64,000 nucleotides of DNA from Piscirickettsiaceae bacterium CG07_land_8_20_14_0_80_44_28 (GTDB taxonomy: Bacteria > Pseudomonadota > Gammaproteobacteria > Thiomicrospirales > Thiomicrospiraceae): positions 20,016 through 84,015 of the forward strand of contig PEWX01000115.1 of NCBI GenBank assembly GCA_002779995.1, given 5' to 3'. Numbering within the stretch: the first letter of the stretch is position 1; every line of letters starts with the position of its first letter. Below are positions 7,584 to 63,992 of the stretch, piece after piece. The notes beneath the pieces were generated by a model, which was given only the letters and a program-made list of their open reading frames with translations, did not search any database and was not told the origin of the DNA. Both the position numbers and the translations under genes were made by a program.

Positions 7584-7586
7584 TAA

Positions 7587-17136: not shown

Positions 17137-17164
17137 TTGAGAATTGTTTTAAAGCTCTTATAAT
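17137..17164 (+). promoter_or_regulatory. Sigma70-type promoter for Bat-like operon B
   Basis: TTGAGA (17137-17142), a 16-nt spacer, then TATAAT (17159-17164). The ORF-track ATG at 17163 lies inside the -10 box, so it is unlikely to be the real start. Confidence 0.5.
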
Positions 17165-17210
17165 GTTGCAATTGATTTATCAACACTGCCCTATCGAAAC
17201 AGGAACGAAG

Positions 17211-19566: not shown

Positions 19567-20588
19567 CGCTAGAAGCCCTCCCATACTTTTGGCAACAACT
19601 CAGCTTTTTGTCACCTTGGATGCTGGCATTTTTGCCGCTGCCCTGGTTGATTAGACGCATCTTTCAACCAGCGCCTCAGCAGCAAGTGCCGCTATTGGCG
19701 CCTCACCTTATCCGACGGTTTGAAAGCAGTGGCGCTAGTCTGATGCAACCCGCCGTCAAACAAATAACATCACTGCCGGTATTGGGATTCGTCATTTGGT
19801 TACTCATATTGTTGGCCGCCATGCGACCGGTTTGGTTTTGGCAAGCTGAACCTTTTAAGGCCACCGGAAAAAACCTAATGCTGGCGGTTGACCTGTCTGG
19901 CAGTATGGAACAAACCGATATGCAAATCGGTGGACAAGCTGTCGATCGCCTCACTGCCGTTAAAAAAGTCGTACAAGACTTTATTGAAAAACGCCAAGGC
20001 GATCGTATGGGCTTGGTGGTGTTTGGCACCCAAGCCTTTTTACAAAGCCCATTAAGCTTTGACTTAAAGACCGTGCAAACGCTATTAAATGAAACAGAAA
20101 TTGGCATGGCCGGCAATAACACGGCCATTGGCGATGCCATCGGTGTGACTTTGCAGCACCTATCTAAAACCCACCAAGATCATACGGTATTGATTTTACT
20201 CACGGATGGCTCCAATACCGCAGGTGCCGTCCAGCCGCTCGATGCAGCGCGCCAAGCCAAAAGTATGGGGGTCAAAATCTATACCATTGGGGTGGGCGTT
20301 GTCGCAAGCCGTGGCTTAGATCAACTGTTATTTGGTCAAAGCCGCTCGGTCGATACCGACACTTTAAAAACCATTGCAGAACGCTCAGGCGGCCAGTTTT
20401 ATACGGCAGCCAATCTTCAACAACTCAATGACATCTATAATGAAATAAATCAATTAGAATCCACTGAACAAGACCGCACACCCTATCGACCCAGAACCGA
20501 ACTTTACCCCTGGCCTTTGGGAGCGGCATTACTCATCAGTTTTTTCATTGCGCTTTATCGACTCTACAGACCAAAATACTATGACTGA
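19563..20588 (+). CDS. VWA-domain membrane protein (BatA-like), operon B
   Basis: 341 aa. Has TM helices, a VWA domain with MIDAS motif DLSGSM, TDGSNTAG, and a C-terminal TM helix. Confidence 0.8.
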   Translation: MTLEALPYFWQQLSFLSPWMLAFLPLPWLIRRIFQPAPQQQVPLLAPHLIRRFESSGASLMQPAVKQITSLPVLGFVIWLLILLAAMRPVWFWQAEPFKATGKNLMLAVDLSGSMEQTDMQIGGQAVDRLTAVKKVVQDFIEKRQGDRMGLVVFGTQAFLQSPLSFDLKTVQTLLNETEIGMAGNNTAIGDAIGVTLQHLSKTHQDHTVLILLTDGSNTAGAVQPLDAARQAKSMGVKIYTIGVGVVASRGLDQLLFGQSRSVDTDTLKTIAERSGGQFYTAANLQQLNDIYNEINQLESTEQDRTPYRPRTELYPWPLGAALLISFFIALYRLYRPKYYD

Positions 20589-22494
20589 AGAAACCCTACA
20601 TTTTTTAAGACCCATTTGGCTATGGGGATTGATTGTCGTCGCATTCATCGGTTGGCGGTTATGGCGCCAAAAAATTCAAGATGGCGGCTGGAACCAACTC
20701 ATCGCAGCCCCGTTTAAGCCTGTGTTATTGACACAACAAACCGAGCAAAAAACCGCCCTGCCGTTAATCGGGTTGTTAATTATTTGGGTGATTACGTTAA
20801 TCGCACTCAGTGGCCCCACTTGGCAAAAGGTTGAAGTACCGGCAGAAAAAAATCGCCAAGCCAGCGTGATACTCTTTGATCTTTCATTATCCATGCTGGC
20901 TGACGACATTAAACCCAACCGCTTAAGCCGAGCCAGATTTCAACTCATCGACCTCCTCAAATCACACCCTGAGCAACAGTTTGGTCTGGTGGTTTATGCG
21001 GGTTCAGCGCACACCATCACCCCCATTTCAGAAGACCCACAAACCCTGATCAACCTAACGCCCAGTCTCAGCCCAATTATTATGCCCCGTATGGGGGCCA
21101 ATGTGATGGCTGGTTTAAAACAAGCCCAACAACTCTTAGAAGGCGCGCATATCACTCAAGGTCATATTATTTGGATCACCGATTCAGTCGAACCCACTGA
21201 AATCAATCCGATTCAACAATTTATAACCACGCAAAAGCTTTCTTTAAGTGTCGTTACCCTAGGGACAGAGTCAGGAGCGCCTATTCCGGTGCCTAATTTT
21301 GGTTTGCTTAAACAAGACAATGGCCAATTGGTGTTAGCCAAACTCCCCTTTTCTGACTTTCAAAGACTTGCAGAAGATGCCAATATCGCGCTGCATCCAT
21401 TGACACAACAACCACTAGACACCTCCGAGCTGTTACCGGCACCCTTTATCCAAAATCAACCGACTTCACCCCCTGATCAACAAACAGATAAAACCCTTTC
21501 CAGTTGGTTAGACCAAGGAATTTATTTAATTTGGTTACTGTTACCATTGGTGGCATTAAGTTTTCGCAAGGGTTGGGCGTTTAGCCATTTCAGCCTCGCA
21601 TTGTTACCGCTGTTATTGATTGGCCAAGCCTATCCGGTGAATGGCTACAGTGCTGAAAAGCAACCGGAAGCTCATTCAGTTTCATTATTGGATGTGTTGA
21701 AATCGAATGATCAGCAAGGCTATGAAAGCTGGCAACAGAAAAATTACGAAGCGGCAGCCAATCAATTTGAATCTCCCTTATGGAAGGGTGCCAGCTACTA
21801 TCGATTGCAAAAGTATGCTGAAGCTATCGAGCAATTTAAACGCGACGAATCCGCAGAAGCTCAATTTAATTTGGGCAATGCACATGCCCAATTAGGACAT
21901 TTTCAACAAGCATTGGATGCCTACCAAAAAGCCTTAGATTTACGCCCGGACTGGCAAGCCGCCCAACAAAACCGCAAGCTCATTGAACAATTGCTAAAAC
22001 AACAGCAACAAAAATCACCGCCATCACCGGAATCCAAAAACACCAACGAATCGAACAACTCCGAGTCGTCGTCTCAGGCTGACACCGAAAATACCCAACC
22101 CAACAACGCACCCAATGACCTGAATCAACCGCAGCAGACCCAACCAACTCAACAACCCCAACAACCCCGAAAAAACGAAACCGCATCAAACTCACAAAAC
22201 GGCCAATCCAATCCCGCTGAATCAACCCAATCGAATCAAAAATCCGGCGATGCAGAAACCGAACACGCTTTATCAACTCAATCCCCGGATAACCAAAAAA
22301 ACCAATCGGATGACGAACAAGCCCGACAAATGACCGAAAACAAGGCTTCTCCAGCCCAGACTGAATCTGAGCGCGCACAGCAAAACTGGTTAAATCAAAT
22401 TCCACACCAACCCGGATTATTTTTAAAACGCAAATTTGAATATCAATATCAGCAACAAGCTGATCCGATTCCTGAAAACACAAAAATTTGGTAA
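20581..22494 (+). CDS. VWA-domain plus TPR-repeat protein (BatB/BatC-like fusion), operon B
   Basis: The ATG at 20581 overlaps the upstream stop. Has MIDAS motif DLSLSM, TPR repeats (YEAAANQFES, YAEAIEQFKR, FQQALDAYQKALDLRPD), and a long Q/N/S/P-rich tail. Confidence 0.8.
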   Translation: MTEETLHFLRPIWLWGLIVVAFIGWRLWRQKIQDGGWNQLIAAPFKPVLLTQQTEQKTALPLIGLLIIWVITLIALSGPTWQKVEVPAEKNRQASVILFDLSLSMLADDIKPNRLSRARFQLIDLLKSHPEQQFGLVVYAGSAHTITPISEDPQTLINLTPSLSPIIMPRMGANVMAGLKQAQQLLEGAHITQGHIIWITDSVEPTEINPIQQFITTQKLSLSVVTLGTESGAPIPVPNFGLLKQDNGQLVLAKLPFSDFQRLAEDANIALHPLTQQPLDTSELLPAPFIQNQPTSPPDQQTDKTLSSWLDQGIYLIWLLLPLVALSFRKGWAFSHFSLALLPLLLIGQAYPVNGYSAEKQPEAHSVSLLDVLKSNDQQGYESWQQKNYEAAANQFESPLWKGASYYRLQKYAEAIEQFKRDESAEAQFNLGNAHAQLGHFQQALDAYQKALDLRPDWQAAQQNRKLIEQLLKQQQQKSPPSPESKNTNESNNSESSSQADTENTQPNNAPNDLNQPQQTQPTQQPQQPRKNETASNSQNGQSNPAESTQSNQKSGDAETEHALSTQSPDNQKNQSDDEQARQMTENKASPAQTESERAQQNWLNQIPHQPGLFLKRKFEYQYQQQADPIPENTKIW

Positions 22495-22499
22495 CCACT

Positions 22500-24197
22500 A
22501 TGTCCCAAGACCTCAAACATAACCAACATCGAAAATGGCTAACCAAAGTCACGCTCATTAGCTTATTGCTGATATTATTGTTGTTAATCAGTTGTGTGGG
22601 ATATGCTAAACAAGTCACGGTTCACACCGATCATCAACAAGTGCAAATGGGTGATATTATTACGCTCATCGTAGAAACCGATTTTTCACCGCAAAGCTCG
22701 CCCGATTTTACTCAAATGCAAGATCAGTTCGATTTATTGGGCAACCAACGCAGCAATCAAATCCAAATCATTAATGGCAACTATCAATCCTTGTCACGTT
22801 GGATACTCCACATCAGCCCCAAGCAAATTGGCGAGCTGGTGATTCCACCGCTTGAAGTGGATGGCATCCTAAGCCAACCGTTAATCATTAACGTATCTGA
22901 TACACAGCACGCGCCCGGCGAGAAACGCGGCAGTAGCTTTTTAGAATCCACGCTAAACCTCACCCAGGTCTATGTTCAACAAGAAGTCCTTTTTACCTTG
23001 CGGTTTTACCATCAAGGGCGCTTTATTGATGGCAATATACGACCACCCGTCTTTGAAGATGCTTTAAGCGAACCCTTGCAAAACCAGTTTCACTATCAAA
23101 CCCAAATTGAGGGGAAACGCTATGATGTCTATCAATGGACTTGGGCATTTTATCCACAGAAAAGTGGCGACGTGGTGATTCCGCCCCAGGCTTTTTATGG
23201 ACGCATTCAATATCAAGGTCGATTAAAGCAAGTTAAAGAACAAACCGACCCGCTGATTTTAACCGTTAAACCCAAACCAGCGAATTATCCGCCACAAGCG
23301 GCATGGCTACCCGCTCAATCACTCAAGCTGACAGAAGATTGGCAAATCAACCAGCCGATTCATGTTGGCGACGCCATCAGTCGAACGCTCAAATTAAGCG
23401 CTCAGGGCTTATTGCATTCACAACTCCCTGTATGGCAATTGTCCAACCAGTCCGGCTTTCATCTCTATCCTGACCCTGAGCAATCCAACAACCAAATCAC
23501 CTCTCAAGGTATTAACAGTCAAAAAACCGTTGACATCGCCATCGTAGCGACTCAAGCAGGCCACCTCACCCTGCCACAAATCGAACTGCATTGGTGGAAC
23601 ACCGCAACCGACCAACTGGAAACGGCCACTTTACCGGCCAAAACCCTCACGATTCTGCCCGCAAAAGCCGATGAAACCGGTCAAGTCGCGCAAACGCCCA
23701 ATAATGATTCACGTGAAACCTTTTCAAAAGAAACCACCCGTCATTCTGAAACTCTTGGCTGGCAAATTGCCGTCGGCGCGCTAATGGGACTCTGGTTTCT
23801 CACCGTGATGGGATTTATATTTTGGATTGTGAAACTTCAAAGCCAACTTAAAAAACAAACAGTAGAAGCGGTTAAAAGCACAAAAAATGACCAGGCCTGG
23901 TCAAATTTAGCCCCCGAAATCGCCAACTTGTGTGACAAAACCCTAGCGGAGAAAGATGCAAAAAGTGTCTTTGTTGCGCTATTAACCTGGAAAAATCACC
24001 ACCCAAACCTCAGCAGCAATGCCCTCAATCGTCAACTAGACGCGCTTAAAGCCCATCTGTATGGGCAAGCCCCTTTAGAACCCTCATTATTAACTGAAGT
24101 CTGTCAAGAAGTGAAGCGGCTTAGTGACACACAACCCCCCAAAGCCGCAGAAAAGAATCGCTTGGCGCCGATTTATCCGACACAACAAACCGAATAA
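22500..24197 (+). CDS. BatD-like protein, last gene of Bat-like operon B
   Basis: Has a signal/anchor segment, a large extracytoplasmic domain, one C-terminal TM helix (LMGLWFLTVMGFIFWIV) and a tail. The ATG at 22500 is preferred over the TTG at 22488. Confidence 0.65.
   Translation: MSQDLKHNQHRKWLTKVTLISLLLILLLLISCVGYAKQVTVHTDHQQVQMGDIITLIVETDFSPQSSPDFTQMQDQFDLLGNQRSNQIQIINGNYQSLSRWILHISPKQIGELVIPPLEVDGILSQPLIINVSDTQHAPGEKRGSSFLESTLNLTQVYVQQEVLFTLRFYHQGRFIDGNIRPPVFEDALSEPLQNQFHYQTQIEGKRYDVYQWTWAFYPQKSGDVVIPPQAFYGRIQYQGRLKQVKEQTDPLILTVKPKPANYPPQAAWLPAQSLKLTEDWQINQPIHVGDAISRTLKLSAQGLLHSQLPVWQLSNQSGFHLYPDPEQSNNQITSQGINSQKTVDIAIVATQAGHLTLPQIELHWWNTATDQLETATLPAKTLTILPAKADETGQVAQTPNNDSRETFSKETTRHSETLGWQIAVGALMGLWFLTVMGFIFWIVKLQSQLKKQTVEAVKSTKNDQAWSNLAPEIANLCDKTLAEKDAKSVFVALLTWKNHHPNLSSNALNRQLDALKAHLYGQAPLEPSLLTEVCQEVKRLSDTQPPKAAEKNRLAPIYPTQQTE
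23891..23900. repeat. CCAGGCCTGG palindrome copy (exact), inside the BatD-like CDS
   Basis: Flanks are aaaaaatga / tcaaattt. Encodes K-N-D-Q-A-W at the position homologous to the copy at 1854. Confidence 0.95.
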
Positions 24198-38623: not shown

Positions 38624-41443
38624 ATGAATTTATTGGCTATCAATTTGCCATTGGTTGTTTTATTGCCATTTATCGGCGCTATCTTTGCTGCTTGGTCTGC
38701 GCGATTAAATCGTTTAGCAGCAGCTTGGGTCAGTGGACTCATTGCCCTAAGTGCTTTAGGATTATTAACACCCACGCTAATACAAGTCTTTGCCGGTCAA
38801 ACGATTATCCAAAGTTGGGCTTGGATTCCTACAATTGGCTTGCACTTTTCATTTCGACTAGATGGCTTAGCCCTCTTGTTTGCGCTACTTATTTTAGTGA
38901 TTGGTATTTTAGTGATCTTTTATGCCCGTTATTACTTGGCGACCAAAGATTGTATGGGCCGATTTTTTGCTTATCTTTTAATGTTTATGGGTTCTATGCT
39001 CGGCATAGTCCTATCAGAAAACCTTATTCAATTAGTGGTTTTCTGGGAACTCACTTCTATCACGTCATTCTTATTAATCAGTTATTGGCAACATCGTAAG
39101 GAAGCACGGCAAGGTGCCAGAATGGCTTTGGCTATAACAGGGGCAGGCGGTTTAGCCTTGTTGGGGGGGGTGCTTTTATTAGGAGAAGTTGTTGGTAGTT
39201 ATCAATTAACAGATATCCTCGCTTCTGGTGATTTAGTTCGTAATAGTCCTTTGTATTTGCCTATTCTAGGATTAATTTTATTAGGCGTCTTCACCAAATC
39301 TGCGCAATTTCCTTTTCATTTTTGGCTACCTCATGCCATGGCGGCTCCAACTCCCGTTTCAGCTTATTTACACTCAGCAACCATGGTCAAAGCTGGGATT
39401 TTTCTATTAGCGCGCTTTTTTCCGATATTATCTGCTACGCCTGAATGGTCTTGGTTAGTCGGCGGTGCAGGAATGATAACCCTTATTATTGGTGCTTATA
39501 TGGCCTTTTTTAAACACGATTTAAAAGGGTTATTAGCTTATTCAACCATCAGTCATCTTGGTTTAATTACCTTATTATTTGGATTTGGAACACAAATGGC
39601 GACGGTTGCTGCTATTTTTCATATTATTAACCACGCGACTTTTAAAGCTTCTTTATTTATGGTGGCGGGCATTATTGATCACGAAACAGGCAGCCGTGAT
39701 ATGCGTAAACTCAATGGCTTAATCAAGTATATGCCACATACCGCTTTTTTAGCCATTATTGCATCCGCTGCAATGGCTGGGGTGCCATTATTAAATGGCT
39801 TTTTAAGTAAAGAAATGTTTTTTGAACAGGCTATTACTGCCAGTCAAACAGCACATTCTGCTTGGATGATTCCCATTTTAGTAACGATTGGTGGTGTATT
39901 ATCCGTTGCTTATTCCATTCGATTTATCCACGATGTGTTTTTTAATGGCGAACCCATTAATTTACCCAAAACCCCACATGAACCCCCTAGATTTATGAAA
40001 ATACCTGTCGATTTTTTGGTGATCATTTGTTTAACCGTTGGTATTTTTCCAAACTATACGATTGCTCCGCTATTAGAAATTGCCGTAATCGGCACTTTAC
40101 AGACAACTCCGCCGAATTATAGTTTGGACATTTGGCATGGCTTTACGCCTGCATTATTCATGAGTTTCATTGCGTTAACGGGCGGTATCACTTTCTATTT
40201 TATGCGCCAACGTTTATTTAATTTTTATGAAAAATTCTTTAGAAAGATTGATGCGCGTCAATATTTTAACCAGTTATTGGCGGGTCTGTTTTCATTAGCA
40301 AACAAGGTCACAAACTTTTTTGATAAAGGCTCTTTGCAAAATGCATCTGCTTGGGTTTTATTCTCTGCCATTATTTTCACCGCTTATGGTTTTAGCTTAC
40401 ATAACTCACCATTATTTGGTGAAAGACCGATGTTACCAATTGATGTTATTTCGCTGATGCTTGCCGTTGGATTAATGTTAACCAGTATTGTTTTGATCTT
40501 TATTCATCGTCAGCGCTTATTAACACTCATTGTTATTGGCATGATTGGATTGGTTTTATCTCTGGCTTTTGTAAAATTTTCAGCGCCAGACTTAGCTTTA
40601 ACCCAATTATCTATTGAAGTGGTAACCATTATTTTATTGCTATTAGCCTTGTATTTTTTACCGCAAGTTACACCAAAAGAAATTGGAAAAATGCGTTTAT
40701 GGCGAGATGGGGTCTTAGCGGTATTATCTGGCATCGGTATTACCTTATACACGCTTGCAGTACTCACAAGAGATTATCAAACCATTGCAGATTATTTCTT
40801 AGCTAATAGCCTAGTTGGCGGAGGCGGTAGCAATGTGGTCAATGTGATTCTTGTCGATTTCCGTGGCTTTGATACTTTAGGGGAAATTACCGTTTTAGCC
40901 TTAGCAGGCCTGGGTGTTTTTGCCATGTTACAGAATATGAAATTACCCGCCCCTAAAAACGATATCGAAGGACGGTTATGGAGTAATGATCCTCACCCTC
41001 TAATTATGCGAACCTTTACCCGTTTACTTTTGCCATTAATGTTAATGGTGGCCATTTTTATTTTCTTTAGAGGTCATAACTTACCCGGTGGTGGGTTTAT
41101 TGCCGGATTGATCGCTTCAGTGGCTTTAATTGTTCAATATTTATCAAATGGCATTCAATTAACCAGTGAACACTTTAAAGTCAATATGAATTGGGTAATT
41201 GGATTGGGATTATTAATTGCTGTTGCAACCGGTTTGGCAGCCATGGGAATGGGATTCCCTTTCTTAACATCAGCCTTTACCCACTTAAATTGGCCCATTA
41301 TTGGCGAATTTGAAATCGCCAGTGCAATCGCATTTGATTTAGGGGTATTTTTAGTGGTCGTGGGTGCAACCGTAATGAGTTTAGTTCAATTAGGACGATT
41401 AAGCTTTGCATCCCATCATCCAAAAGCTAAGGAACAAAATTAA
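38624..41443 (+). CDS. mrpA: Mrp/Mnh-type monovalent cation/proton antiporter subunit A (fused A+B)
   Basis: 939 aa. Has a NuoL/ND5-like core (FWELTSITSFLLISYW, SAQFPFHFWLPHAMAAPTPVSAYLHSATMVKAG) plus an MrpB-like C-terminal extension. Confidence 0.9.
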   Translation: MNLLAINLPLVVLLPFIGAIFAAWSARLNRLAAAWVSGLIALSALGLLTPTLIQVFAGQTIIQSWAWIPTIGLHFSFRLDGLALLFALLILVIGILVIFYARYYLATKDCMGRFFAYLLMFMGSMLGIVLSENLIQLVVFWELTSITSFLLISYWQHRKEARQGARMALAITGAGGLALLGGVLLLGEVVGSYQLTDILASGDLVRNSPLYLPILGLILLGVFTKSAQFPFHFWLPHAMAAPTPVSAYLHSATMVKAGIFLLARFFPILSATPEWSWLVGGAGMITLIIGAYMAFFKHDLKGLLAYSTISHLGLITLLFGFGTQMATVAAIFHIINHATFKASLFMVAGIIDHETGSRDMRKLNGLIKYMPHTAFLAIIASAAMAGVPLLNGFLSKEMFFEQAITASQTAHSAWMIPILVTIGGVLSVAYSIRFIHDVFFNGEPINLPKTPHEPPRFMKIPVDFLVIICLTVGIFPNYTIAPLLEIAVIGTLQTTPPNYSLDIWHGFTPALFMSFIALTGGITFYFMRQRLFNFYEKFFRKIDARQYFNQLLAGLFSLANKVTNFFDKGSLQNASAWVLFSAIIFTAYGFSLHNSPLFGERPMLPIDVISLMLAVGLMLTSIVLIFIHRQRLLTLIVIGMIGLVLSLAFVKFSAPDLALTQLSIEVVTIILLLLALYFLPQVTPKEIGKMRLWRDGVLAVLSGIGITLYTLAVLTRDYQTIADYFLANSLVGGGGSNVVNVILVDFRGFDTLGEITVLALAGLGVFAMLQNMKLPAPKNDIEGRLWSNDPHPLIMRTFTRLLLPLMLMVAIFIFFRGHNLPGGGFIAGLIASVALIVQYLSNGIQLTSEHFKVNMNWVIGLGLLIAVATGLAAMGMGFPFLTSAFTHLNWPIIGEFEIASAIAFDLGVFLVVVGATVMSLVQLGRLSFASHHPKAKEQN
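40904..40913. repeat. One-mismatch copy of the palindrome (GCAGGCCTGG) inside mrpA
   Basis: Read directly from the sequence. Confidence 0.7.
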
Positions 41444-41841
41444 TGGAATTATTAGTTGCCCTATCCATAGGGTTTCTCACCGCCAGTGGCGTATTTTTAA
41501 CACTCCGTGCCAGAACCTTTCCGGTGGTTTTAGGACTAACGCTATTAGCCTATGCGGTCAATTTATTTTTATTTGCAATGGGTCGCTTAACCATTGGGTT
41601 ACCAACCATTATTGACTCAGCACAAGGTCAATATGCCGACCCACTTCCACAAGCATTAGTCCTCACCGCCATAGTTATAGCTTTTGGTATGACTGCCTTT
41701 TTGATTGTATTGGCTTTAAAAGCCCGTGCGGAATTGGGGAATGATCATGTTGATGGTATCAATTTAGCTCAAGATGAAGCGTCTTTAGAACATACATTAC
41801 CACCCCAAAAACCTAATAAACAGGTCGGAAAGACAAGATGA
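41443..41841 (+). CDS. mrpC: Mrp antiporter subunit C (NuoK-like)
   Basis: 132 aa with three TM helices. Its start overlaps the mrpA stop. Confidence 0.85.
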   Translation: MELLVALSIGFLTASGVFLTLRARTFPVVLGLTLLAYAVNLFLFAMGRLTIGLPTIIDSAQGQYADPLPQALVLTAIVIAFGMTAFLIVLALKARAELGNDHVDGINLAQDEASLEHTLPPQKPNKQVGKTR

Positions 41842-43364
41842 CAAGCCTCACATTTTTACCCCTTGTTGTGCCTTTGCTAATAGGTATTAGCATTTTATTG
41901 ATTCAATCACTTGGTTTAAAACGCCAACGTTTGATCAGTTTTTTAGGCGCTGTTACTTTAGTTTGGGTGAGTATTAATAGCTTATTGGTTTCATTAGAAG
42001 GCGAACCACAAGTTTTTATTTTAGGGAACTGGGTTGCTCCTTATGGGATTGTTTTAGTATTAGATCAATTTTCTGCGATGATGGTTTTGATTACGTCACT
42101 CTTAGCCATTGGCGCTATTTGGTATGCAATAGCGCAACAGATTGATGGTAAAGGAGCGCATTTTCATACTTTATTTCATATTCAATTATTTGGGTTAAAT
42201 GGTGCTTTTCTAACCGGCGATGTCTTTAACTTATTCGTATTCTTTGAAGTGCTATTATTAGCTTCTTATGGATTAATTTTACATGGTGGTGGACGCTTAA
42301 GAACCAAAGCTGGGTTGCATTATGTGGTGATTAATTTAATTGGCTCTACATTATTTTTATTTGCCGTTGGTGCTTTATATGGCATTTTAGGTACCTTAAA
42401 TATTGCAGATATGGCCGTTAAAATTGCTGAATTACCAGTCGAGGATTATGGCATTGTCACTGCAGCTGGTTTATTACTATTGTTGGTTTTTGGTCTTAAA
42501 GCAGCTATGTTCCCACTTTATTTATGGTTACCCCAAGCTTATGCCAATGCCTCTGCCCCAGTTGCTGCCTTATTTGCCATTATGACTAAAGTTGGACTTT
42601 ATGCCATTATTCGAGTTCATGGCACCCTATTTGGCAGCACAGCAGGGGATTTGGCTTATTTTTATATGCCTTGGTTATTAGCGTTAGGATTAATCACTTT
42701 ATTATTAGCCGCTTTAGGGGTTTTGGCCGCAAAAGGATTAAGAGAGCAAATTGCCTATTTGGTATTAACTTCGGTTGCTACCTTATTAATTGGTATTGGT
42801 TTAAATACGCCAGCCGCTTTATCAGGGAGTTTGTATTATTTGATTCATTCTACTTTAATCGCGGCCGGCTTCTTTTTATTAGCAGATATGATTACTCGAG
42901 GACGTGGGGTTTATGGTGATCAATTTGAATCCGGAAACCCCATTTATAAAGGAATACTATTAGGCAGTTTCTTTATATTCGCTGCCATTGCGATGACGGG
43001 ATTGCCGCCTTTATCAGGATTTTTTGGTAAATTATTAATTCTATCTGCCGCTTTAGAACATGATTGGTTTGCTATTATTTTAATAACAATATTAATTTCA
43101 GGTCTTTTTATAATTATTGCTGTTGCTCGATCTGGCTCTATACTATTTTATCAAACCCAAATTAATCAAAAACCTGAGATTACACCTTTTAATAAATATG
43201 CTTTTTTTGCGGTGATATTATTATTGGCGACCAGTCCTATTTTAGTCATATTAGCCAATCCAATTACGGCTTTTACTGAAAGTACTGCGCTACAATTGCT
43301 CGATAAAATTCAATATATTGACAGTGTTCTCAATGCTCTGCCAATTGAAAGGCCGCAACCATGA
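41838..43364 (+). CDS. mrpD: Mrp antiporter subunit D (NuoN/ND2-like)
   Basis: 508 aa polytopic protein. Has FNLFVFFEVLLLASY and LWLPQAYANASAPVAALFA. Confidence 0.9.
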   Translation: MTSLTFLPLVVPLLIGISILLIQSLGLKRQRLISFLGAVTLVWVSINSLLVSLEGEPQVFILGNWVAPYGIVLVLDQFSAMMVLITSLLAIGAIWYAIAQQIDGKGAHFHTLFHIQLFGLNGAFLTGDVFNLFVFFEVLLLASYGLILHGGGRLRTKAGLHYVVINLIGSTLFLFAVGALYGILGTLNIADMAVKIAELPVEDYGIVTAAGLLLLLVFGLKAAMFPLYLWLPQAYANASAPVAALFAIMTKVGLYAIIRVHGTLFGSTAGDLAYFYMPWLLALGLITLLLAALGVLAAKGLREQIAYLVLTSVATLLIGIGLNTPAALSGSLYYLIHSTLIAAGFFLLADMITRGRGVYGDQFESGNPIYKGILLGSFFIFAAIAMTGLPPLSGFFGKLLILSAALEHDWFAIILITILISGLFIIIAVARSGSILFYQTQINQKPEITPFNKYAFFAVILLLATSPILVILANPITAFTESTALQLLDKIQYIDSVLNALPIERPQP

Positions 43365-43876
43365 AAACACCAAATAAACCTAAACATAATCGATTATTAC
43401 CCCATCCTATTCTAACAATGGTGTTATGGATAATTTGGTTATTACTTAACAATACCTTAGCACCAGGACATATCGTATTAGGGTTTATTTTGGCAATCAC
43501 CATTCCATTGTTAACGACCTCTTTCTGGCCCGAAAAAATCACATTATCTAATCCATGGGTTATTTTTAAATTCTTTTGGGTAGTCATTGGTGATATTTTG
43601 ATTGCTAATATCATAGTCGCAAAATTAATTTTAGGACCCAATCGTCGATTAAAACCTGGATTTTTTTTAATTGAATTGGAGGTTCAACATCCTTTAGGTA
43701 TTAGTATCCTTGCAAATACTATTTCATTAACGCCAGGTACGGTTTCATGTGATGTGACAGCCGATCGAAAATACTTAAAAGTTCATGCTTTGCATTTAGA
43801 AAATAAAACAGACACTATTCAACAAATTAAACAACGTTATGAAATGCCCTTAATAAAGGTTTTTGAATCATGTTAA
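43361..43876 (+). CDS. mrpE: Mrp antiporter subunit E
   Basis: 171 aa at the correct operon position, with overlapping start. Has the TLTPGTVS motif (ISLTPGTVSCDV). Confidence 0.8.
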   Translation: MKTPNKPKHNRLLPHPILTMVLWIIWLLLNNTLAPGHIVLGFILAITIPLLTTSFWPEKITLSNPWVIFKFFWVVIGDILIANIIVAKLILGPNRRLKPGFFLIELEVQHPLGISILANTISLTPGTVSCDVTADRKYLKVHALHLENKTDTIQQIKQRYEMPLIKVFESC

Positions 43877-46812: not shown

Positions 46813-48468
46813 TTAAGATTCACTGTCTGAAAAAACATTGCCGAGTAATTCAGTTAAACGGTCGTTTTCGGAATAGTCTACCGGGCAATCAATGACGGTA
46901 ACCGTTTGTTTGGTTAAAGCCATTTTAAGAGCCGGATACAAATCAGATGCTTTTTCAATGTGGATTCCCGTTGCCCCAAAAGATTGGGCATATTGAACAA
47001 AATCCGGGTTATTAAAATCAATATAAGCTGATCGACCAAATTGACGTTTTTGTTTCCAATTAATTAAACCATACTGACTGTCATTCCAAATTAAAATGAC
47101 AATCGGGGTTTGGCAACGTAATGCGGTTTCAATTTCTTGAGAATTCATCATAAAGCCTGCATCGCCGGTCACAGCAACCACGGCTTTATTTGGAAACGCT
47201 AATTTAGCGCCTATTGCACCCGGTACAGCAATCCCCATACTGGCAAAGCCATTGGAAATAATGCAGGTATTTGGCAGTTCCGAGCGGAAAAACCGCGCCA
47301 TCCACATTTTATGCGCGCCGACATCACAAATAGCAATATCTTCACGATGCATTGCGGTTCTTAGATCCCAAATAATTTTTTGGGGCTTCATCGGAAACGC
47401 ATTACTTTCAGAACAGCGCTGCATTTCTTCAATCATTGCCTCTCGTAAAGGATAGGGTTTAGGATGGTGATTTTTGTTGGGTAATTTTTCGGTTAATGCA
47501 TTGAGATTTCGACCAATATTTCCTATTAATTCAACATTGGGAATATAACTATAATCTACTTCAGCAGGACTGGTATCAATGTGAATGATAGTGTGTTCGC
47601 GATTTGGATTCCATAAATGGGGATGATATTCAACCATATCAAATCCGACACAGATCACTAAATCTGAATCAGAAAAACCACCATTTTCATAATCTCCTTT
47701 TTGTAATCCGGCGGTTCCAACCGATAACGGATTATGAAAATGGGGAACGGCACCTTTTGCCATAAAGGTATTCACAAAAGGGATTTGGCAATGATTTGCA
47801 AAAGCTTCTAATTGTCCACTGGCATGGGCTCTTACCACACCATTACCAACTAAAATTAAAGGGGATCTAGCTCGACTGATTAACAGTGCTGCCTTTTCAA
47901 TTAATTTGGTATCTGCCAAGGTTAATCTGGGTTTAACAACCGGTAAAGGGCGTTCCGGTGTTGTCATTTCACTGATATTTTCTGGAAAATCAATAAATAC
48001 AGCACCCGGTTTTTCAGATTGCGCTAATTTAAACCCTTTACGAATAACTTCCGGAATCGTTTCAGGTTCTAATAGTTGGGTGGCGTATTTGGTAATGGGT
48101 TTGAATAGACTTACCAGATCAACGACTTGGTGGGATTCTTTATGGAGTCGAGTGGTGGCTGCTTGTCCGGCGATGGCAACCACTGGTGAATGATCCATAT
48201 TAGCATCTGCTACGCCTGTTACTAAATTGGTTGCCCCTGGCCCTAAGGTGGATAAACAAACCCCTGCTTTACCGGTTAATCTGCCATAGACATCCGCCAT
48301 AAAAGCGGCACCTTGTTCATGACGGCAAGTAATAAATTGAATTTTGGAATCCAAAAGTGCATCCATCATATCCATATTTTCTTCGCCAGGAATACCAAAA
48401 ACAAAGTCGACTTGTTCATTTTCTAAACATTTTACAAAGAGTATTGCCGCTTTCATTAATAAATCCAT
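46813..48468 (-). CDS. Thiamine-diphosphate-dependent acetolactate synthase, catabolic AlsS-like
   Basis: 551 aa. Has FGIPGEEN, RHEQGAAFMADVYGRLTGKAG, LGPGATNL and the TPP-binding motif GDAGFMMNSQE...NDSQYG. Confidence 0.85.
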   Translation of the reverse strand: MDLLMKAAILFVKCLENEQVDFVFGIPGEENMDMMDALLDSKIQFITCRHEQGAAFMADVYGRLTGKAGVCLSTLGPGATNLVTGVADANMDHSPVVAIAGQAATTRLHKESHQVVDLVSLFKPITKYATQLLEPETIPEVIRKGFKLAQSEKPGAVFIDFPENISEMTTPERPLPVVKPRLTLADTKLIEKAALLISRARSPLILVGNGVVRAHASGQLEAFANHCQIPFVNTFMAKGAVPHFHNPLSVGTAGLQKGDYENGGFSDSDLVICVGFDMVEYHPHLWNPNREHTIIHIDTSPAEVDYSYIPNVELIGNIGRNLNALTEKLPNKNHHPKPYPLREAMIEEMQRCSESNAFPMKPQKIIWDLRTAMHREDIAICDVGAHKMWMARFFRSELPNTCIISNGFASMGIAVPGAIGAKLAFPNKAVVAVTGDAGFMMNSQEIETALRCQTPIVILIWNDSQYGLINWKQKRQFGRSAYIDFNNPDFVQYAQSFGATGIHIEKASDLYPALKMALTKQTVTVIDCPVDYSENDRLTELLGNVFSDSES

Positions 48469-59241: not shown

Positions 59242-59793
59242 ATGAAACTTTCATCGATCGAACTAGGCGAAGCTTCAGTAGAGCAAGAAAAGGTTTTGTC
59301 TCGTGCCCAATCTACTATTGGCTTTGTCCCCAATTTAATCAAGAAAATGGCAAATGCACCTGTCATTGCTGAAGCTTATCTTACTGTGGGAGAAATTTTT
59401 AGTAAAAGTTCTTTTTCTGCAATAGAGCAACAACTTATCTTGTTGACGGTGAGCCGATATCATGAATGTGCTTACTGCATGGCAGCTCATTCTGCGATTG
59501 CAAAAATGCAATCCGTACCCAAAGAGATAATTGAGGCTATTCGCAATGATGAAGATTTGTCAAATCCCAAGTTGGCTGCATTGCGAAATTTGACTGAAAA
59601 TATGGTTGCTACTCGTGGAAACCCGGATGAATCAGTTCTTAAAGAATTTTTAGAAGTGGGTTATGATGATTCACAGGTTCTAGAAATTATTTTAGGAATT
59701 TCAATGAAAATACTTAGCAACTATACGAATCATGTTGCTGAAACCGAATTAGACGAGATGATGGAACCGGAACGTTGGCATGTCAATAAATAA
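59242..59793 (+). CDS. Carboxymuconolactone decarboxylase (AhpD-like) family protein
   Basis: 183 aa. Has the AhpD-type CxxC motif in HECAYCMAAHS. Confidence 0.8.
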   Translation: MKLSSIELGEASVEQEKVLSRAQSTIGFVPNLIKKMANAPVIAEAYLTVGEIFSKSSFSAIEQQLILLTVSRYHECAYCMAAHSAIAKMQSVPKEIIEAIRNDEDLSNPKLAALRNLTENMVATRGNPDESVLKEFLEVGYDDSQVLEIILGISMKILSNYTNHVAETELDEMMEPERWHVNK

Positions 59794-59811: not shown

Positions 59812-60396
59812 CTAGTTTTGACAAAACAACTGAGTGATGAGTTGGTTTTTGATTTCGGTTAAAGTGGGCTTATCAGTGGTGAGTTTACTGTAACCGCGTA
59901 ACCCATAAATATGAGTGATCATAATTTTGGCTAATAGCTCAGGGCTATGATTGCTCAGTGGTGCTGATTCTTGTTTTGCGCGTCGTAAAATTTGAACCAT
60001 TCTGTGTTCAATTTGGGCAAAAAGGTCTCGGATTGTATCCATTTGGGGTTCATTTTGATTATGTGTTTCAAATAACGTATTGACCAAAAAACAGCCTTGA
60101 GGCGTTTCGATACAAAAATCGATAAAAAAATCATAAAAGTTTGCAATGACTTGTTTGGCGGGTTGATCGATTGATAAAACCTCATCTAAAGCCTGAAGGA
60201 GTTCTTGTTGATAGGCTTGTAAAGATTTTAAGAAAAATTGTTCTTTATTACCAAAAGCGCTGTAAAAACTACCGGGTTTTAATCCTGTTTCCTTAACAAG
60301 ATCTTCCATAGAAGTGGCATCATATCCTTTTAGCCAAAAGACATTCGCACCTTTTTTTAGAACGGTCGCTTCATCATACTTCTTAGGTCTACCCAT
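59812..60396 (-). CDS. TetR/AcrR family transcriptional regulator
   Basis: 194 aa. Has the N-terminal HTH motif GYDATSMEDLVKETGLKPGSFYSAFGNKEQ. Confidence 0.85.
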   Translation of the reverse strand: MGRPKKYDEATVLKKGANVFWLKGYDATSMEDLVKETGLKPGSFYSAFGNKEQFFLKSLQAYQQELLQALDEVLSIDQPAKQVIANFYDFFIDFCIETPQGCFLVNTLFETHNQNEPQMDTIRDLFAQIEHRMVQILRRAKQESAPLSNHSPELLAKIMITHIYGLRGYSKLTTDKPTLTEIKNQLITQLFCQN

Positions 60397-60440
60397 TTAT
60401 GGTTCCTTAGATTGTCCACTTAGGTTTTAATCAATTTGAA

Positions 60441-60483
60441 TAAAAAACCTGCTGACCTTTTGAATTAAAGGTGCGCAGGTTTT
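60441..60483 (-). terminator. Strong rho-independent terminator after the EGKCG-repeat gene
   Basis: On the minus strand, AAAACCTGC-GC-ACCTTT-aattca-AAAGGT-CA-GCAGGTTTT (9+6 bp stem) is followed by TTTA. Confidence 0.8.
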
Positions 60484-60517
60484 AAAGGTTTTAAGATTGT
60501 TGCGTCTTAAAAAGTTT

Positions 60518-60949
60518 TTATGAGCGTCCGCCGCACTTACCTTCGGCTTCTTTTTTACCGCCACATTTGCCTTCGGCTTCTTTTTTACCGCCACATTTGC
60601 CTTCGGCTTCTTTTTTACCGCCGCATTTGCCTTCGGCTTCTTTTTTACCGCCACATTTGCCTTCGGCTTCTTTTTTGCCACCACATTTGCCTTCGGCTTC
60701 TTTTTTGCCACCACATTTGCCTTCGGCTTCTTTTTTGCCACCACATTTGCCTTCGGAAGATTTTTTGTTACCGCCGCACTTACCTTCTCCGCATTTGCCT
60801 TCATGACTTGAAGCTAATTGATTTTCATAGCCTTTTTCAAGGTTTTTAAAACCAAAATCCGCTTCTTTGGCTAGAGCCGTGCCGGTGATCATAGAAGCGG
60901 TAGCGGCGCCTGCTAATTTTAAAAATTGTCTACGTGATGCGTTTTTCAT
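60518..60949 (-). CDS. Tat-signal EGKCG-repeat peptide, an HvfA/oxazolin-like candidate RiPP metallophore precursor
   Basis: 143 aa, with AAGAGG 7 nt upstream of the ATG. Has a twin-arginine signal (SRRQFLKLAGAATASMITGTALA|KE) followed by ten EGKCG motifs, seven of them as identical EGKCGGKKEA decapeptides. Confidence 0.75.
   Translation of the reverse strand: MKNASRRQFLKLAGAATASMITGTALAKEADFGFKNLEKGYENQLASSHEGKCGEGKCGGNKKSSEGKCGGKKEAEGKCGGKKEAEGKCGGKKEAEGKCGGKKEAEGKCGGKKEAEGKCGGKKEAEGKCGGKKEAEGKCGGRS
60541..60750. repeat. Tandem array of seven 30-bp units (degenerate units extend it to about 60529-60800)
   Basis: CTTCGGCTTC recurs at 60541, 60571, 60601, 60631, 60661, 60691 and 60721. Units 1-4 carry ACCGCC and units 5-7 carry GCCACC. 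Unit 3 has a single A-to-G change. All differences are synonymous in the minus-strand frame. Confidence 0.95.
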
Positions 60950-60991
60950 GGTGTACCTCTTAAAAAATGAATTGTTGTTAAAAGTTAAGTG

Positions 60992-61588
60992 TTATTTTTT
61001 TAGAAAACGTTTTGCAATCCAGTAATCAATACTGAAATAACGTCCACCACCTAAAATAACCAAGGTTAAAAGCATGAGTAAATAGGTCACAGCCCATTCT
61101 ATGCCATTATTGCTAATGACAAAACTCCCTGTTTCAGTTAGCCACTCATAGTGACCATGTTGTTGTAATAAGGATTTGGCGGCTTCTAGTCGTTCCATTG
61201 CGCCATCAATATTGGCGCTAGCCCAAGGCGACATAGGGTCGTGAATCGCTTGCCAGCCGTTTTGAAGATGCACGGAAAAGATCGCCACTAACATGGTCAC
61301 GATCAATGGAATACTTGCCCAACGGGTTGCTAATCCAAGCAATAATAACATAGCACCACCGACTTCCGCAGCAATGGCCAAGCTGGCCATTAGCTCTGGG
61401 AAAGGTAAGCCCAAGCCCCATTCTGAGTTGCCAAACCATTCGACCATCCCTGCAAATCCGGCAATTTTATTGGTACCTGCAACCCAAAACACAGCGGCTA
61501 AATACAAGCGAATAGGCAGGGTTGCTAAGAAATCTAACCGAGTTGTTGTTTGGATCATAACTTGTTGAATCTTAATGAGCCACTGCAT
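60992..61588 (-). CDS. DoxX-family membrane protein
   Basis: Four predicted TM helices with DoxX-like segments (LPIRLYLAAVFWVAGTNK, LAIAAEVGGAMLLLLGLATRWASIPL) and a soluble insertion before the last helix. The ATG at 61588 (MQWLIK), preceded by AAGGAA, is preferred over the GTG at 61618. Confidence 0.65.
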   Translation of the reverse strand: MQWLIKIQQVMIQTTTRLDFLATLPIRLYLAAVFWVAGTNKIAGFAGMVEWFGNSEWGLGLPFPELMASLAIAAEVGGAMLLLLGLATRWASIPLIVTMLVAIFSVHLQNGWQAIHDPMSPWASANIDGAMERLEAAKSLLQQHGHYEWLTETGSFVISNNGIEWAVTYLLMLLTLVILGGGRYFSIDYWIAKRFLKK

Positions 61589-61678
61589 AAGAAATTCCTT
61601 ATATAATTGAATGTTCACTCAAAAAAGATATTAACAATTTATTTCTTAAAAAACAACATAAATGAGAATCATTTTTAC

Positions 61679-61688
61679 CCAGGCCTGG
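61679..61688. repeat. CCAGGCCTGG palindrome copy (exact), intergenic between the 2OG oxygenase and DoxX genes
   Basis: Part of a 12-bp palindrome, CCCAGGCCTGGG. Flanks are catttta / cattatt. Confidence 0.95.
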
Positions 61689-61691
61689 GCA

Positions 61692-62342
61692 TTATTCTGC
61701 GGGATCAATCACTCCGGCAATGCTGCTATTGCATCGAAACCAACCCGCGATACTGATTCTAGGGTGCTGCGTGGGTAAAACCTCATGGGGAATTTGCTCA
61801 CTCATAAATACTATCAGTTTGCCGATTTCGGGGGTGACGTTAGTCAGTTGTGCTGAGCTGTCTTCGTTATACACAACCAGTTCACCTCCCCAATCTGCTT
61901 GCCAATCTGGATTGAGATACAGTACCGTTGTCACCATGCGATTAGCACGCCCTCGAAAGCTATCGAGGTGCTTTTTATAAAAGTCGCCCGTTTTATAAAC
62001 CGCAAAGTGACATTCATATTCAAACAAACCCAGAAACAGGGCGCGATTGAGTTGATATTGTAATTCGGCCATTAGGTTGAGATAGGATTTTTGGGCTGTC
62101 GTTGAACCATCTAACCACTTAATCTGGTCTCGGCGGATGGTTTGATTGCGTTGATGAATGTCACCGCGGCCGATTCCGGCAATTTGTAAGTTGCCTTGTT
62201 GGTCGTGATATTTGGCTTCGGCTAATAGTTGATGACATAGGTCATCACTGACAGCCTGTGGCCATTCAAACCAACCTTTTTCAACTAAGGCATTGAGGCG
62301 TTGATCCATCACCGAATCAGTTAGGTTGAGGGGCATTGGCAT
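61692..62342 (-). CDS. 2OG-Fe(II) oxygenase (prolyl-hydroxylase-like)
   Basis: 216 aa. Has the HxD motif in KKHLDSF, the distal His in IPHEV, and the 2OG-binding Arg in RISIAGWF. Confidence 0.8.
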   Translation of the reverse strand: MPMPLNLTDSVMDQRLNALVEKGWFEWPQAVSDDLCHQLLAEAKYHDQQGNLQIAGIGRGDIHQRNQTIRRDQIKWLDGSTTAQKSYLNLMAELQYQLNRALFLGLFEYECHFAVYKTGDFYKKHLDSFRGRANRMVTTVLYLNPDWQADWGGELVVYNEDSSAQLTNVTPEIGKLIVFMSEQIPHEVLPTQHPRISIAGWFRCNSSIAGVIDPAE

Positions 62343-62405: not shown

Positions 62406-63992
62406 TTACCATTGATCAGAACGAGCCAGTCTCCAGTCTTTCAAAACGGATGTTGGAACAGTTGATTCTTGTTTTAAACAGTTGGTTTCAATGCAAGGAA
62501 AGATGTCATCGAAGGAAGCGACTTCTTGAGCGCTGACGCGACGCATTAAGTGACGGGGTTCAATTTCACTGGGACAACTTAACCCCATTGCAGAAACCAA
62601 TTCCATCAAATTATGAATAATTGATGTTTGATAGCGGGCAACCCGTTGTGATTTGTCTTCAATATTGAGTGCTTTATAGCGTTTGGGGTTTTGAGTGGCA
62701 ATGCCGGTTGGGCAGGTATCCATATGACAATGGCGAGATTGAATGCAGCCGAGCGCAAACATCATACCGCGAGCCGAGTTAACCAGATCTGCACCTAAAG
62801 CCAGTAACCTGATAATGTGAAAGGCGGTAAACGCTTTGCCTGACGCAATCAGCTTGACTTCTTTGCGAATCCCAAACCCCATCAGGGTGTTATGAACAAA
62901 TGACAAAGCTTCTCTTAAAGGCATGCCAACAGAATTGGTAAATTCGACAGGCGCCGCACCAGTGCCCCCTTCTCCGCCATCGACAGTGATAAAATCAGGG
63001 TATAGCTCGGTTTCAACCATGGCTTTACAAATGGCTATAAATTCACTTTTTTGACCAATACTCAATTTAAAGCCAACGGGTTTGCCACCCGAAAGGGTTC
63101 TTAATTTGGTCACAAATTCTAACAGTCCACGAGGCGATGAAAAAGCCGAGTGTGCAGGCGGGGATAGGACATCTTTGCCAATGTCTACCACTCGAATTTC
63201 AGCAATTTCTTGCGTGACTTTGGATCCGGGTAAAACACCACCATGGCCGGGCTTAGCACCTTGAGACAGTTTGACTTCAATCATTTTAATCTGTGGGTTT
63301 TGGCTTTTTTCTGTAAATAACTCGGCATCAAATTCACCGTTTAAGTTGCGGCATGAAAAATAGCCGGTACCGATTTGCCAAACTAAATCGCCCCCTTCCA
63401 TGAGATGGTAAGGGCTTAATCCACCTTCGCCGGTATTATGATAAAACCCGCCGATCTGTGCGCCACGGTTTAAAGCCCGAATGGCGTGAGAGCTTAATGC
63501 ACCGTAACTCATTGCTGAAATATTAAACCGAGAGGCCGCATAGGGTTGTTTGCACCGGTTGGCACCAATCAACACACGCGTTTGTTCAGCAGGGATGGGT
63601 TTAGGGGAAAGAGAGTGGGCGGTCCACTCATAGCCAATTCTGTAGGTGTCAAAAATCGTTCCAAAAGGTCGGGTGTCTTGAACCCCTTTGGCTCTTTGAT
63701 AGATGAGTTCTCTAAACTCGCGATTAACGGGCATGCCACTGGTGTCATCTTCGACAAAATATTGCTGGATTTCAGGTCGGATTGATTCAGAAAAATAGCG
63801 AAAATGACCAATGACGGGATAAAGCCGCAATAACGTTCGTTTGGTTTGGGTCATGTCGCGCCAACCCACAATAATATAAGGGCCGACCAGTAACCAAAAA
63901 ATCGAGATTTGTGGCCAGAAAAAAGCAGCGGTGACCAGCCCTGTCGAAGAGGCAATGGCAGTCACGATAAAAATATCGCGGGTGGTTCTCAT
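62406..63992 (-). CDS. FMN-binding glutamate-synthase-family protein with N-terminal membrane anchor
   Basis: 528 aa. Has two N-terminal TM helices followed by a GltB-domain-2-like region (SAMSYGALS, GEGG, KLSQGAKPGHGG, DGGEGGTGAAP). Confidence 0.85.
   Translation of the reverse strand: MRTTRDIFIVTAIASSTGLVTAAFFWPQISIFWLLVGPYIIVGWRDMTQTKRTLLRLYPVIGHFRYFSESIRPEIQQYFVEDDTSGMPVNREFRELIYQRAKGVQDTRPFGTIFDTYRIGYEWTAHSLSPKPIPAEQTRVLIGANRCKQPYAASRFNISAMSYGALSSHAIRALNRGAQIGGFYHNTGEGGLSPYHLMEGGDLVWQIGTGYFSCRNLNGEFDAELFTEKSQNPQIKMIEVKLSQGAKPGHGGVLPGSKVTQEIAEIRVVDIGKDVLSPPAHSAFSSPRGLLEFVTKLRTLSGGKPVGFKLSIGQKSEFIAICKAMVETELYPDFITVDGGEGGTGAAPVEFTNSVGMPLREALSFVHNTLMGFGIRKEVKLIASGKAFTAFHIIRLLALGADLVNSARGMMFALGCIQSRHCHMDTCPTGIATQNPKRYKALNIEDKSQRVARYQTSIIHNLMELVSAMGLSCPSEIEPRHLMRRVSAQEVASFDDIFPCIETNCLKQESTVPTSVLKDWRLARSDQW

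Follow-up and report, generated by a model that had tools for sequence, protein, structure and literature searches.

How can a peptide whose cysteines would be modified by a dedicated enzyme pair be matured and exported from a locus that encodes neither enzyme? The question is raised by a two-gene unit, hvfX-hvfA, in a stretch of 64,000 nucleotides from Piscirickettsiaceae bacterium CG07_land_8_20_14_0_80_44_28 (assembly GCA_002779995.1, contig PEWX01000115.1, positions 20,016 to 84,015 of the forward strand), here called the window. An earlier note, made from the letters of this DNA, had described a precursor with a twin-arginine (Tat) signal and EGKCG repeats beside a DoxX gene, lacking an MNIO/DUF2063 maturase in cis, and had named three explanations: an orphan precursor serviced in trans, an unmodified poly-thiolate metal buffer, or a maturation route not yet described. 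Judged by gene content and order, hvfX-hvfA represents the front half of the canonical operon hvfX-hvfA-hvfB-hvfC, and in one subclade of Hydrogenovibrio it appears to have been parted from the genes for its maturase. Servicing in trans fits this picture best: we consider it fairly likely that the truncated hvfXABC operon yields a peptide that is matured in trans, leaves the cytoplasm by Tat and binds copper in the periplasm, while the buffer and the undescribed route are rated lower.

In the mechanism that we propose, HvfA would be made with its twin-arginine signal, and copper-binding heterocycles (5-thiooxazoles) would be formed from its approximately ten EGKCG cysteines while it is still in the cytoplasm. 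This step would fall to an HvfB (MNIO)/HvfC (DUF2063) pair from another part of the genome, for which the genus-typical second locus Tat-hvfA2-hvfB-hvfC is the most plausible source. The finished peptide would then leave by Tat, lose its signal by a cut after ALA and sequester Cu(I) in the periplasm. HvfX would serve as the membrane partner and a nearby glutamate-synthase-like flavoprotein may work with it, whereas the neighbouring 2-oxoglutarate (2OG) oxygenase, an orthologue of the EF-Tu prolyl hydroxylase, would stand outside the mechanism.

The precursor gene and its unit

The unit comprises the following features.

60518..60949, minus strand: hvfA, precursor of the EGKCG family (oxazolin/captophorin) of copper-binding peptides that are synthesized by ribosomes and modified after translation (RiPPs); 143 amino acids with 10 Cys, from the open reading frame (ORF) and its translation
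60869..60949, minus strand: twin-arginine signal, residues 1-27, running from SRRQFLK to ALA, with KE following (Pfam TAT_signal, TIGR01409)
60528..60756, minus strand: 30-bp tandem repeat encoding the Cys-bearing core, (EGKCGGKKEA)n; 7.6 copies with 96% matches in Tandem Repeats Finder
60992..61618, minus strand: hvfX, encoding an HvfX-type member of the DoxX membrane-protein family (NF050144, Pfam DoxX)
60441..60483, minus strand: intrinsic-terminator-like hairpin with U-run, closing the hvfX-hvfA unit (RNA folding)

The translation of ORF 60518-60949 starts with MKNASRRQFLKLAGAATASMITGTALA and continues with KE; the short linker ADFGFKNLEKGYENQLASSH precedes ten (E)GKCG motifs that between them contain all 10 Cys, as the earlier note had counted. 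The NCBIfam model NF050137 (HvfA family, RiPP metallophore) recognizes the peptide with 29.2 bits at a cut-off of 19.5, and the product of 60992-61618 reaches 226 bits with NF050144, an equivalog model (HvfX family Cu-binding RiPP maturation protein; cut-off 80), and E = 5.9e-23 with Pfam DoxX. The former assignment to an HvfA-type precursor and an HvfX-type DoxX protein is thus borne out. The peptide has 3670 homologues at E <= 0.001, and its orthologue in Hydrogenovibrio sp. SC-1 carries the UniRef label HvfA family. On the strength of these family models, hvfX and hvfA are members of a known system and not a new kind of gene. The Tat signal, likewise proposed before, reaches 23.2 bits with Pfam TAT_signal and 24.5 bits with TIGR01409, above the respective cut-offs of 22.7 and 16.7. 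It combines the S/T-R-R-x-F-L-K motif with a moderately hydrophobic h-region, cleavage between ALA and KE is predicted from the AxA motif, and as an export signal it stands where a RiPP would classically have a leader. A check on the conservation of the RR motif had been suggested in the same note: RR, F and L of the signal occur without exception across 25 aligned Tat-type homologues.

The hvfX gene ends 42 nt before the start of hvfA, and a ribosome-binding-site-like AAGAGG lies 7 nt 5' of the hvfA ATG (direct reading). A possible alternative hvfX start, an ATG ~30 nt downstream, would lead to a product of 198 amino acids, as called on metagenome contigs. Both the 42-nt gap and a strong terminator had been reported; the hairpin (~60444-60483) folds with -22.9 kcal/mol (z = -5.07) and 0 of 200 shuffled sequences fold as well, while a simple terminator scan misses it because of an internal loop. 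The promoter scan gave a number of sites not above that in shuffled sequence and thus does not define the transcription unit. An Rfam scan of the window returned no match, and base composition across 52-64 kb bears no island signature.

In Haemophilus influenzae the operon NTHI1440-1444 has the order DoxX/HvfX-HvfA-HvfB-HvfC (PMC11252979). Similar to this operon of nontypeable H. influenzae (NTHi), the window has hvfX directly 5' of hvfA, and its precursor consists of a signal, a short N-terminal region and EGKCG repeats. NTHi HvfA, however, has a Sec signal and its gene is followed by hvfB and hvfC, whereas the window precursor has a Tat signal and its gene is followed by a terminator. The cores differ as well, with three AEGKCGEGKCG double motifs and a disulfide pair in NTHi against one double motif and eight spaced EGKCGG units in the window. 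In Hydrogenovibrio halophilus DSM 15072 (locus L072), which belongs to the same genus, a Tat-HvfA is likewise encoded downstream of hvfX, and glutamate-synthase-like and CMD genes lie alongside. Unlike the window, this locus has MNIO and DUF2063 in cis (in the row hvfX, Tat-hvfA, MNIO, DUF2063), its flavoprotein gene is split and it lacks a neighbour resembling the prolyl hydroxylase PPHD. NTHi and H. halophilus share the order hvfXABC, and the window, in common with Hydrogenovibrio sp. SC-1 and the Hydrogenovibrio metagenome assembly Co_bin_385, has only hvfX-hvfA, which thus corresponds to the first half of the operon.

As to the chemistry, the oxazolone/thioamide product given in the earlier note has been superseded: preprints of 2025 re-assign the modification of EGKCG peptides, oxazolin included, to 5-thiooxazole (-4 Da for each Cys) and propose the class name "captophorins" (bioRxiv 10.1101/2025.11.18.689057; 10.64898/2025.12.15.693703). 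Bufferins (BufA DUF2282/BufB/BufC/DoxX) are comparable in that they, too, are signal-bearing RiPPs that bind copper; the MNIOs that make them are close relatives, and DoxX is frequent in their clusters. Their precursors, in contrast, belong to the DUF2282 or Buf_6/12Cys family, contain no EGKCG repeats and are described as Sec substrates.

The length of the core differs among assemblies. On two contigs, from assemblies 99.9% identical to the window, hvfA (L100 10001-10282; L101 4861-5142) encodes 93 amino acids with 5 Cys, exactly five 30-bp units fewer than in the window, and reflects either true strain variation or short-read repeat collapse. The repeat also gives rise to long spurious ORFs (60427-60804 on the minus strand; 60520-60849 and 60567-60806 on the plus strand) with Lys/Ala-rich, Leu/Arg-rich and Pro/Ser-rich translations, which pose a mis-annotation risk for gene callers. 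The differing repeat number, together with the disappearance of hvfBC relative to H. halophilus, could be taken to mean that hvfX-hvfA is the decaying, non-functional residue of a deleted operon. Such decay is hardly credible to us. Neither ORF is broken in any of three species or in several metagenomes, the Tat motif and the segment just past the signal are conserved, and the AAGAGG is in place. Window HvfX is 86% identical to that of Hydrogenovibrio sp. SC-1 (83% in a scan of species-representative genomes), 82% to that of the metagenome-assembled genome (MAG) Co_bin_385 and 76% to that of H. halophilus DSM 15072, the three closest in that scan, while the housekeeping genes flanking hvfX-hvfA show 81-93% identity to SC-1. 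Because HvfX falls within the range of these neighbours and the HvfA N-terminus is near-identical across three species, we judge hvfX-hvfA to be under selection.

Maturase genes in cis and possibly in trans

Hidden Markov models (HMMs) of MNIO and DUF2063 were made from genes in related loci, whose identity rests on Pfam PF05114 (E = 1.3e-100) and on PF09836 and PF22106. A six-frame search with these models found neither MNIO nor DUF2063 in the 64-kb window (best E = 3.6 and 0.62), as the earlier note had stated, and Pfam annotation of 40 further large ORFs, taken from the window as far as 50.5 kb, yielded no MNIO/DUF2063 gene. There are no tat genes among the Pfam-annotated window ORFs. The stretch past the window end was read from L100 and L101, contigs 99.8-99.9% identical to the window that extend 7 kb further; it contains a divergent HD-GYP gene, cyanase, OsmC, acyl-CoA-dehydrogenase-like, rubredoxin-reductase-like and DNA methylase genes, and no MNIO/DUF2063. 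A DUF692/DUF2063 pair just past the window edge, with which the locus would have been an ordinary split cluster according to the earlier note, is thereby excluded for at least 7 kb.

The missing cis maturase had been presented as a distinctive feature, but related loci do not bear this out. A scan for HvfX in species-representative genomes gave 79 loci, and HvfA lies within 4.5 kb in 37 of 72 HvfX loci. MNIO or DUF2063 is present in the fetched locus in 15 of these 37 and absent in 22; in half of the latter (11/22) the flank on each side measures 5 kb or more. HvfA-HvfX without a cis maturase is thus the commoner state among related loci. Methylophaga-type hvfA-hvfX-msrP-msrQ loci (L009, L023), for example, resemble the window in having an HvfA-HvfX pair and no MNIO/DUF2063 within 10 kb, yet differ by a Sec-type signal, by hvfA being upstream of hvfX and by linkage to extracytoplasmic function (ECF) sigma/anti-sigma genes and MsrPQ. 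The gene order at such loci (L009, L013, L023 and others), with divergent ECF sigma and anti-sigma genes and then hvfA, hvfX, msrP and msrQ, suggests that HvfA-HvfX may act as a unit with periplasmic methionine-sulfoxide repair in Methylophaga.

Maturation in trans is in line with what is known of these peptides. Stand-alone (unlinked) precursors have been reported, for which modification in trans was proposed (PMC12452194), and HvfBC modifies HvfA cut down to small fragments, the signal peptide being dispensable (PMC11252979). The spaced EGKCGG repeats of the window are like those of precursors with an MNIO in cis (L085, L103, L118). Within the genus, Hydrogenovibrio sp. 3SP14C1 encodes an HvfB (P0079), and a Tat-type HvfA cluster (P0196) is probably encoded on the same contig. 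Some observations weigh against this reading. No SC-1 protein is among the best 120 MNIO matches when H. halophilus HvfB is the query. The candidate MNIO/second-HvfA proteins (P0077, P0025, P0109, P0126, P0138, P0230, P0057, P0011) all come from samples other than those with the window's species (JGI 3300008004/07/08/11/18; ENA ERZ27293391, ERZ27293403 and ERZ778022). An hvfBC pair is putative for the source genome as well as for Hydrogenovibrio sp. SC-1 (NZ_PKGB01) and MAG Co_bin_385 (CBFHUY01), its closest relatives that share the locus. In addition, the window-clade peptides have ADF after the signal where most homologues have NPF. This last counter-point is weak since NAF and SGF occur in precursors that have an MNIO in cis; that ADF marks a lost recognition by HvfC was rejected on the same grounds and because FonBC accepts any single substitution ahead of the core, as it does most of those inside the core.

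If the subclade has indeed lost hvfBC, HvfA might be an orphan that acts, together with HvfX, as an unmodified, disordered Cys-thiolate metal buffer or redox peptide of the periplasm. The absence of a maturase from the window and the next 7 kb and the missing SC-1 match would suit this explanation, as would the 22 of 37 pairs without a cis MNIO, which point to a pair that is stable as its own unit. Complete genomes with EGKCG precursors that are devoid of any MNIO gene do exist (67/2583; PMC12452194 Table 3). They account, however, for just ~2.6% of that survey, and congeners of the window's species encode hvfBC. The core, moreover, retains the exact EGKCG context preferred by MNIO, beyond the Cys alone, and Sec would be enough for an unmodified unfolded peptide (AlphaFold2 mean predicted local distance difference test score, pLDDT, 48.7), yet the Tat motif is strictly conserved. 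On balance we find the orphan peptide rather unlikely. We hold it to be distinctly improbable that the window subclade (the window species, sp. SC-1 and Co_bin_385) is without MNIO/DUF2063 genes throughout its genomes, the peptide being an unmodified poly-thiolate or one that is matured or loaded by HvfX and the flavoprotein.

Twin-arginine signals in Hydrogenovibrio and its relatives

EGKCG and bufferin precursors have been described as Sec substrates (PMC12452194, PMC11252979). The earlier note was correct in this, but its association of the Tat signal with the missing maturase does not hold. When the 120 best homologues of the window peptide are considered, 26 have an RR motif, and the named ones of these 26 all belong to Hydrogenovibrio, Thiomicrorhabdus or Thiosulfativibrio. 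Among the loci of the HvfX scan, every Hydrogenovibrio precursor has RRxFLK and lies downstream of hvfX, whereas in other genera 33 of 33 precursors are of the Sec type and, except at the two Panacagrimonas loci, lie upstream of hvfX. Tat-hvfA is also found directly 5' of hvfB-hvfC (L085-L090, H. kuenenii in L091, L092-L094, L095-L099, L118, L121-L127, L128, L132), and hvfX is missing from such loci in H. kuenenii (L091) and in L085, L092-99, L118, L121, L128 and L132. With Tat-HvfA beside HvfB-HvfC in L072, L091 and several metagenome loci, the signal is not tied to maturase loss.

The Tat-hvfA-hvfB-hvfC loci of Hydrogenovibrio and Thiomicrorhabdus are like the window in their RRxFLK signal, followed by (N/x)(P/x)FGF...GY and spaced EGKCGG repeats. 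Unlike the window, they have the maturase but not hvfX and occupy another chromosomal site, near DJ-1/PfpI and S41 peptidase genes. In four of them, on metagenome contigs that look like Thiomicrospiraceae, the locus is directly preceded by cus genes of the RND copper-efflux type, namely cusB-cusA-cusC (L092 1647-9526; L121 77-8210) or cusA-cusC (L128 1-6678; L132 1-6651, both cut at the locus start), and a multicopper-oxidase fragment adjoins the L132 locus. The position of these cus genes supports a copper role for the Tat-type peptides. A metagenome scan with RR[DNQ]FLK[LM]A[GA] gave at least 600 matches, with two real HvfA loci among the matches listed.

A Tat signal on EGKCG precursors appears to be undescribed in the papers searched, and it is a trait of the whole Hydrogenovibrio/Thiomicrorhabdus group and not of this locus. 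As to why Tat is used, AlphaFold2 gives no confident fold for the unmodified window peptide and models a helix for the signal segment alone, so that a folded apo-domain fails to account for Tat; folded cargo was dropped as the reason. Export by Tat may follow modification or metal loading of the peptide, and could mean that the peptides exit the cytoplasm already bearing Cu(I). How export waits until the cytoplasmic enzymes have finished has been raised as an open problem (PMC12452194).

Neighbouring genes and biological implications

The genes surrounding the unit are those listed in the earlier note, with a CMD-family gene in addition.

61692..62342, minus strand: PPHD-type 2OG-Fe(II) prolyl hydroxylase, a backbone gene judged to be outside the system (PDB 4iw3/4j25, synteny)
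62406..63992, minus strand: membrane-anchored flavin mononucleotide (FMN) glutamate-synthase-domain protein (PF01645, E = 1.1e-88)
59812..60396, minus strand: TetR-family regulator, downstream of hvfA (Pfam TetR_N, TetR_C_13)
59242..59793, plus strand: AhpD/CMD-family peroxidase-related protein, a recurrent neighbour on weak grounds (PF02627, TIGR01926)

The genes for the flavoprotein, the 2OG oxygenase, HvfX and HvfA share a strand and are spaced 42-73 nt apart. This arrangement of four genes, together with the pairing of the flavoprotein and hvfX in at least six unrelated loci, would be compatible with an undescribed maturation route in which the flavoprotein, HvfX or the 2OG oxygenase modifies HvfA instead of MNIO/DUF2063. 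We regard such a route as very improbable in view of what the two neighbours are and where else they occur.

The 2OG oxygenase matches PDB 4iw3/4j25 with E = 3e-47 over residues 18-204 and thus aligns near full length with Pseudomonas PPHD, the EF-Tu Pro54 hydroxylase, its substrate being predicted by this similarity; in PDB 4iw3, PPHD of P. putida is seen in complex with EF-Tu (PMC6235002). A search with the window enzyme gave 1625 homologues at E <= 1e-10, and the named ones among the best 120 come from Thiomicrospiraceae genera and from Halomonas, Modicisalibacter and Marinospirillum. In Hydrogenovibrio sp. 3SP14C1 (L115) the gene order is cyanase (cynS), 2OG oxygenase, DUF4395, APH and polA with no hvf genes, and the window has this same backbone with hvfX-hvfA-TetR-CMD placed between the 2OG oxygenase and DUF4395. 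In Thiosulfativibrio zosterae (L117) the 2OG gene has an unrelated context. PPHD orthology and the same backbone site free of hvf genes make the adjacency to hvfX positional and not functional. The oxygenase is therefore no redox enzyme swapped in as a neighbour, as had been supposed, and as a replacement maturase it was ruled out.

The case of the glutamate-synthase-like (gltS-like) flavoprotein is different. Its orthologues (41-65% identity) stand directly upstream of hvfX in unrelated gammaproteobacterial loci (L010, L012, L034, L038, L041, L049), so that its recurrence beside hvfX is real, but it is also part of clusters that keep MNIO and DUF2063, and the view of it as a substitute enzyme falls. 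The gene orders are hvfA, gltS-like, hvfX, hvfB, hvfC in L041; hvfA, hvfB, hvfC, gltS-like, hvfX, nhaP in L038; and hvfA, hvfB, hvfC, three other genes, aldehyde dehydrogenase, gltS-like, hvfX, nhaP in L010, while in L012 a DUF2063 gene lies at the contig end. The flavoprotein thus accompanies the maturase and does not replace it. Conversely, Hydrogenovibrio sp. SC-1 and Co_bin_385 have hvfX-hvfA without the flavoprotein, and in H. halophilus the gltS-like gene next to the hvf operon (L072 13114-15797) is disrupted by an IS605 tnpB with OrfB_IS605 and Cas12f1-like TNB domains. From its recurrence, the flavoprotein is a probable accessory partner of HvfX; the MNIO landscape paper does not mention "glutamate synthase" (PMC12452194). 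A thiamine pyrophosphate (TPP)-dependent, acetolactate-synthase-like enzyme is encoded in the window at 46813-48468 (minus strand), ~12 kb from hvfX, and TPP enzymes that cluster with it adjoin gltS-like-hvfX in L015, L034 and L049, which belong to other taxa, often together with aldehyde dehydrogenase and an NhaP-type exchanger.

On the other side of hvfA, relatives of the TetR regulator are found divergently upstream of hvfA in Methylophaga (L013, L062; all-against-all BLASTP clustering), and the window TetR might possibly be a local regulator of the hvf genes. A CMD homologue with 44% identity adjoins the hvf locus of H. halophilus, and L013 has another one. The recurrence of TetR and CMD near hvfA hints at a regulatory or redox link, although weakly. 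Elsewhere in the window there are two clusters of the Bat/aerotolerance type with MoxR (AAA_3), DUF58, VWA and VWA-TPR genes within 15 kb (3083-8588, minus strand; 17163-24197, plus strand), the second of which additionally has DUF4381 and BatD. Genes of an Mrp/Mnh-type multisubunit cation/proton antiporter occupy 38624-43876 (plus strand) and include a fused MnhA-MnhB subunit of 939 amino acids.

What stands out here is the family-wide Tat signal on a RiPP class and the flavoprotein-hvfX pair, while the locus itself is otherwise a common split cluster. The recurrent pair offers a concrete lead to the role of HvfX/DoxX. Should the window subclade prove free of MNIO and DUF2063, its HvfA and HvfX would act together in a way that needs no such maturase. 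The Tat-HvfA peptides of Hydrogenovibrio and Thiomicrorhabdus, finally, would provide a natural comparison for studying the timing of export and the export of modified or metal-loaded peptides.

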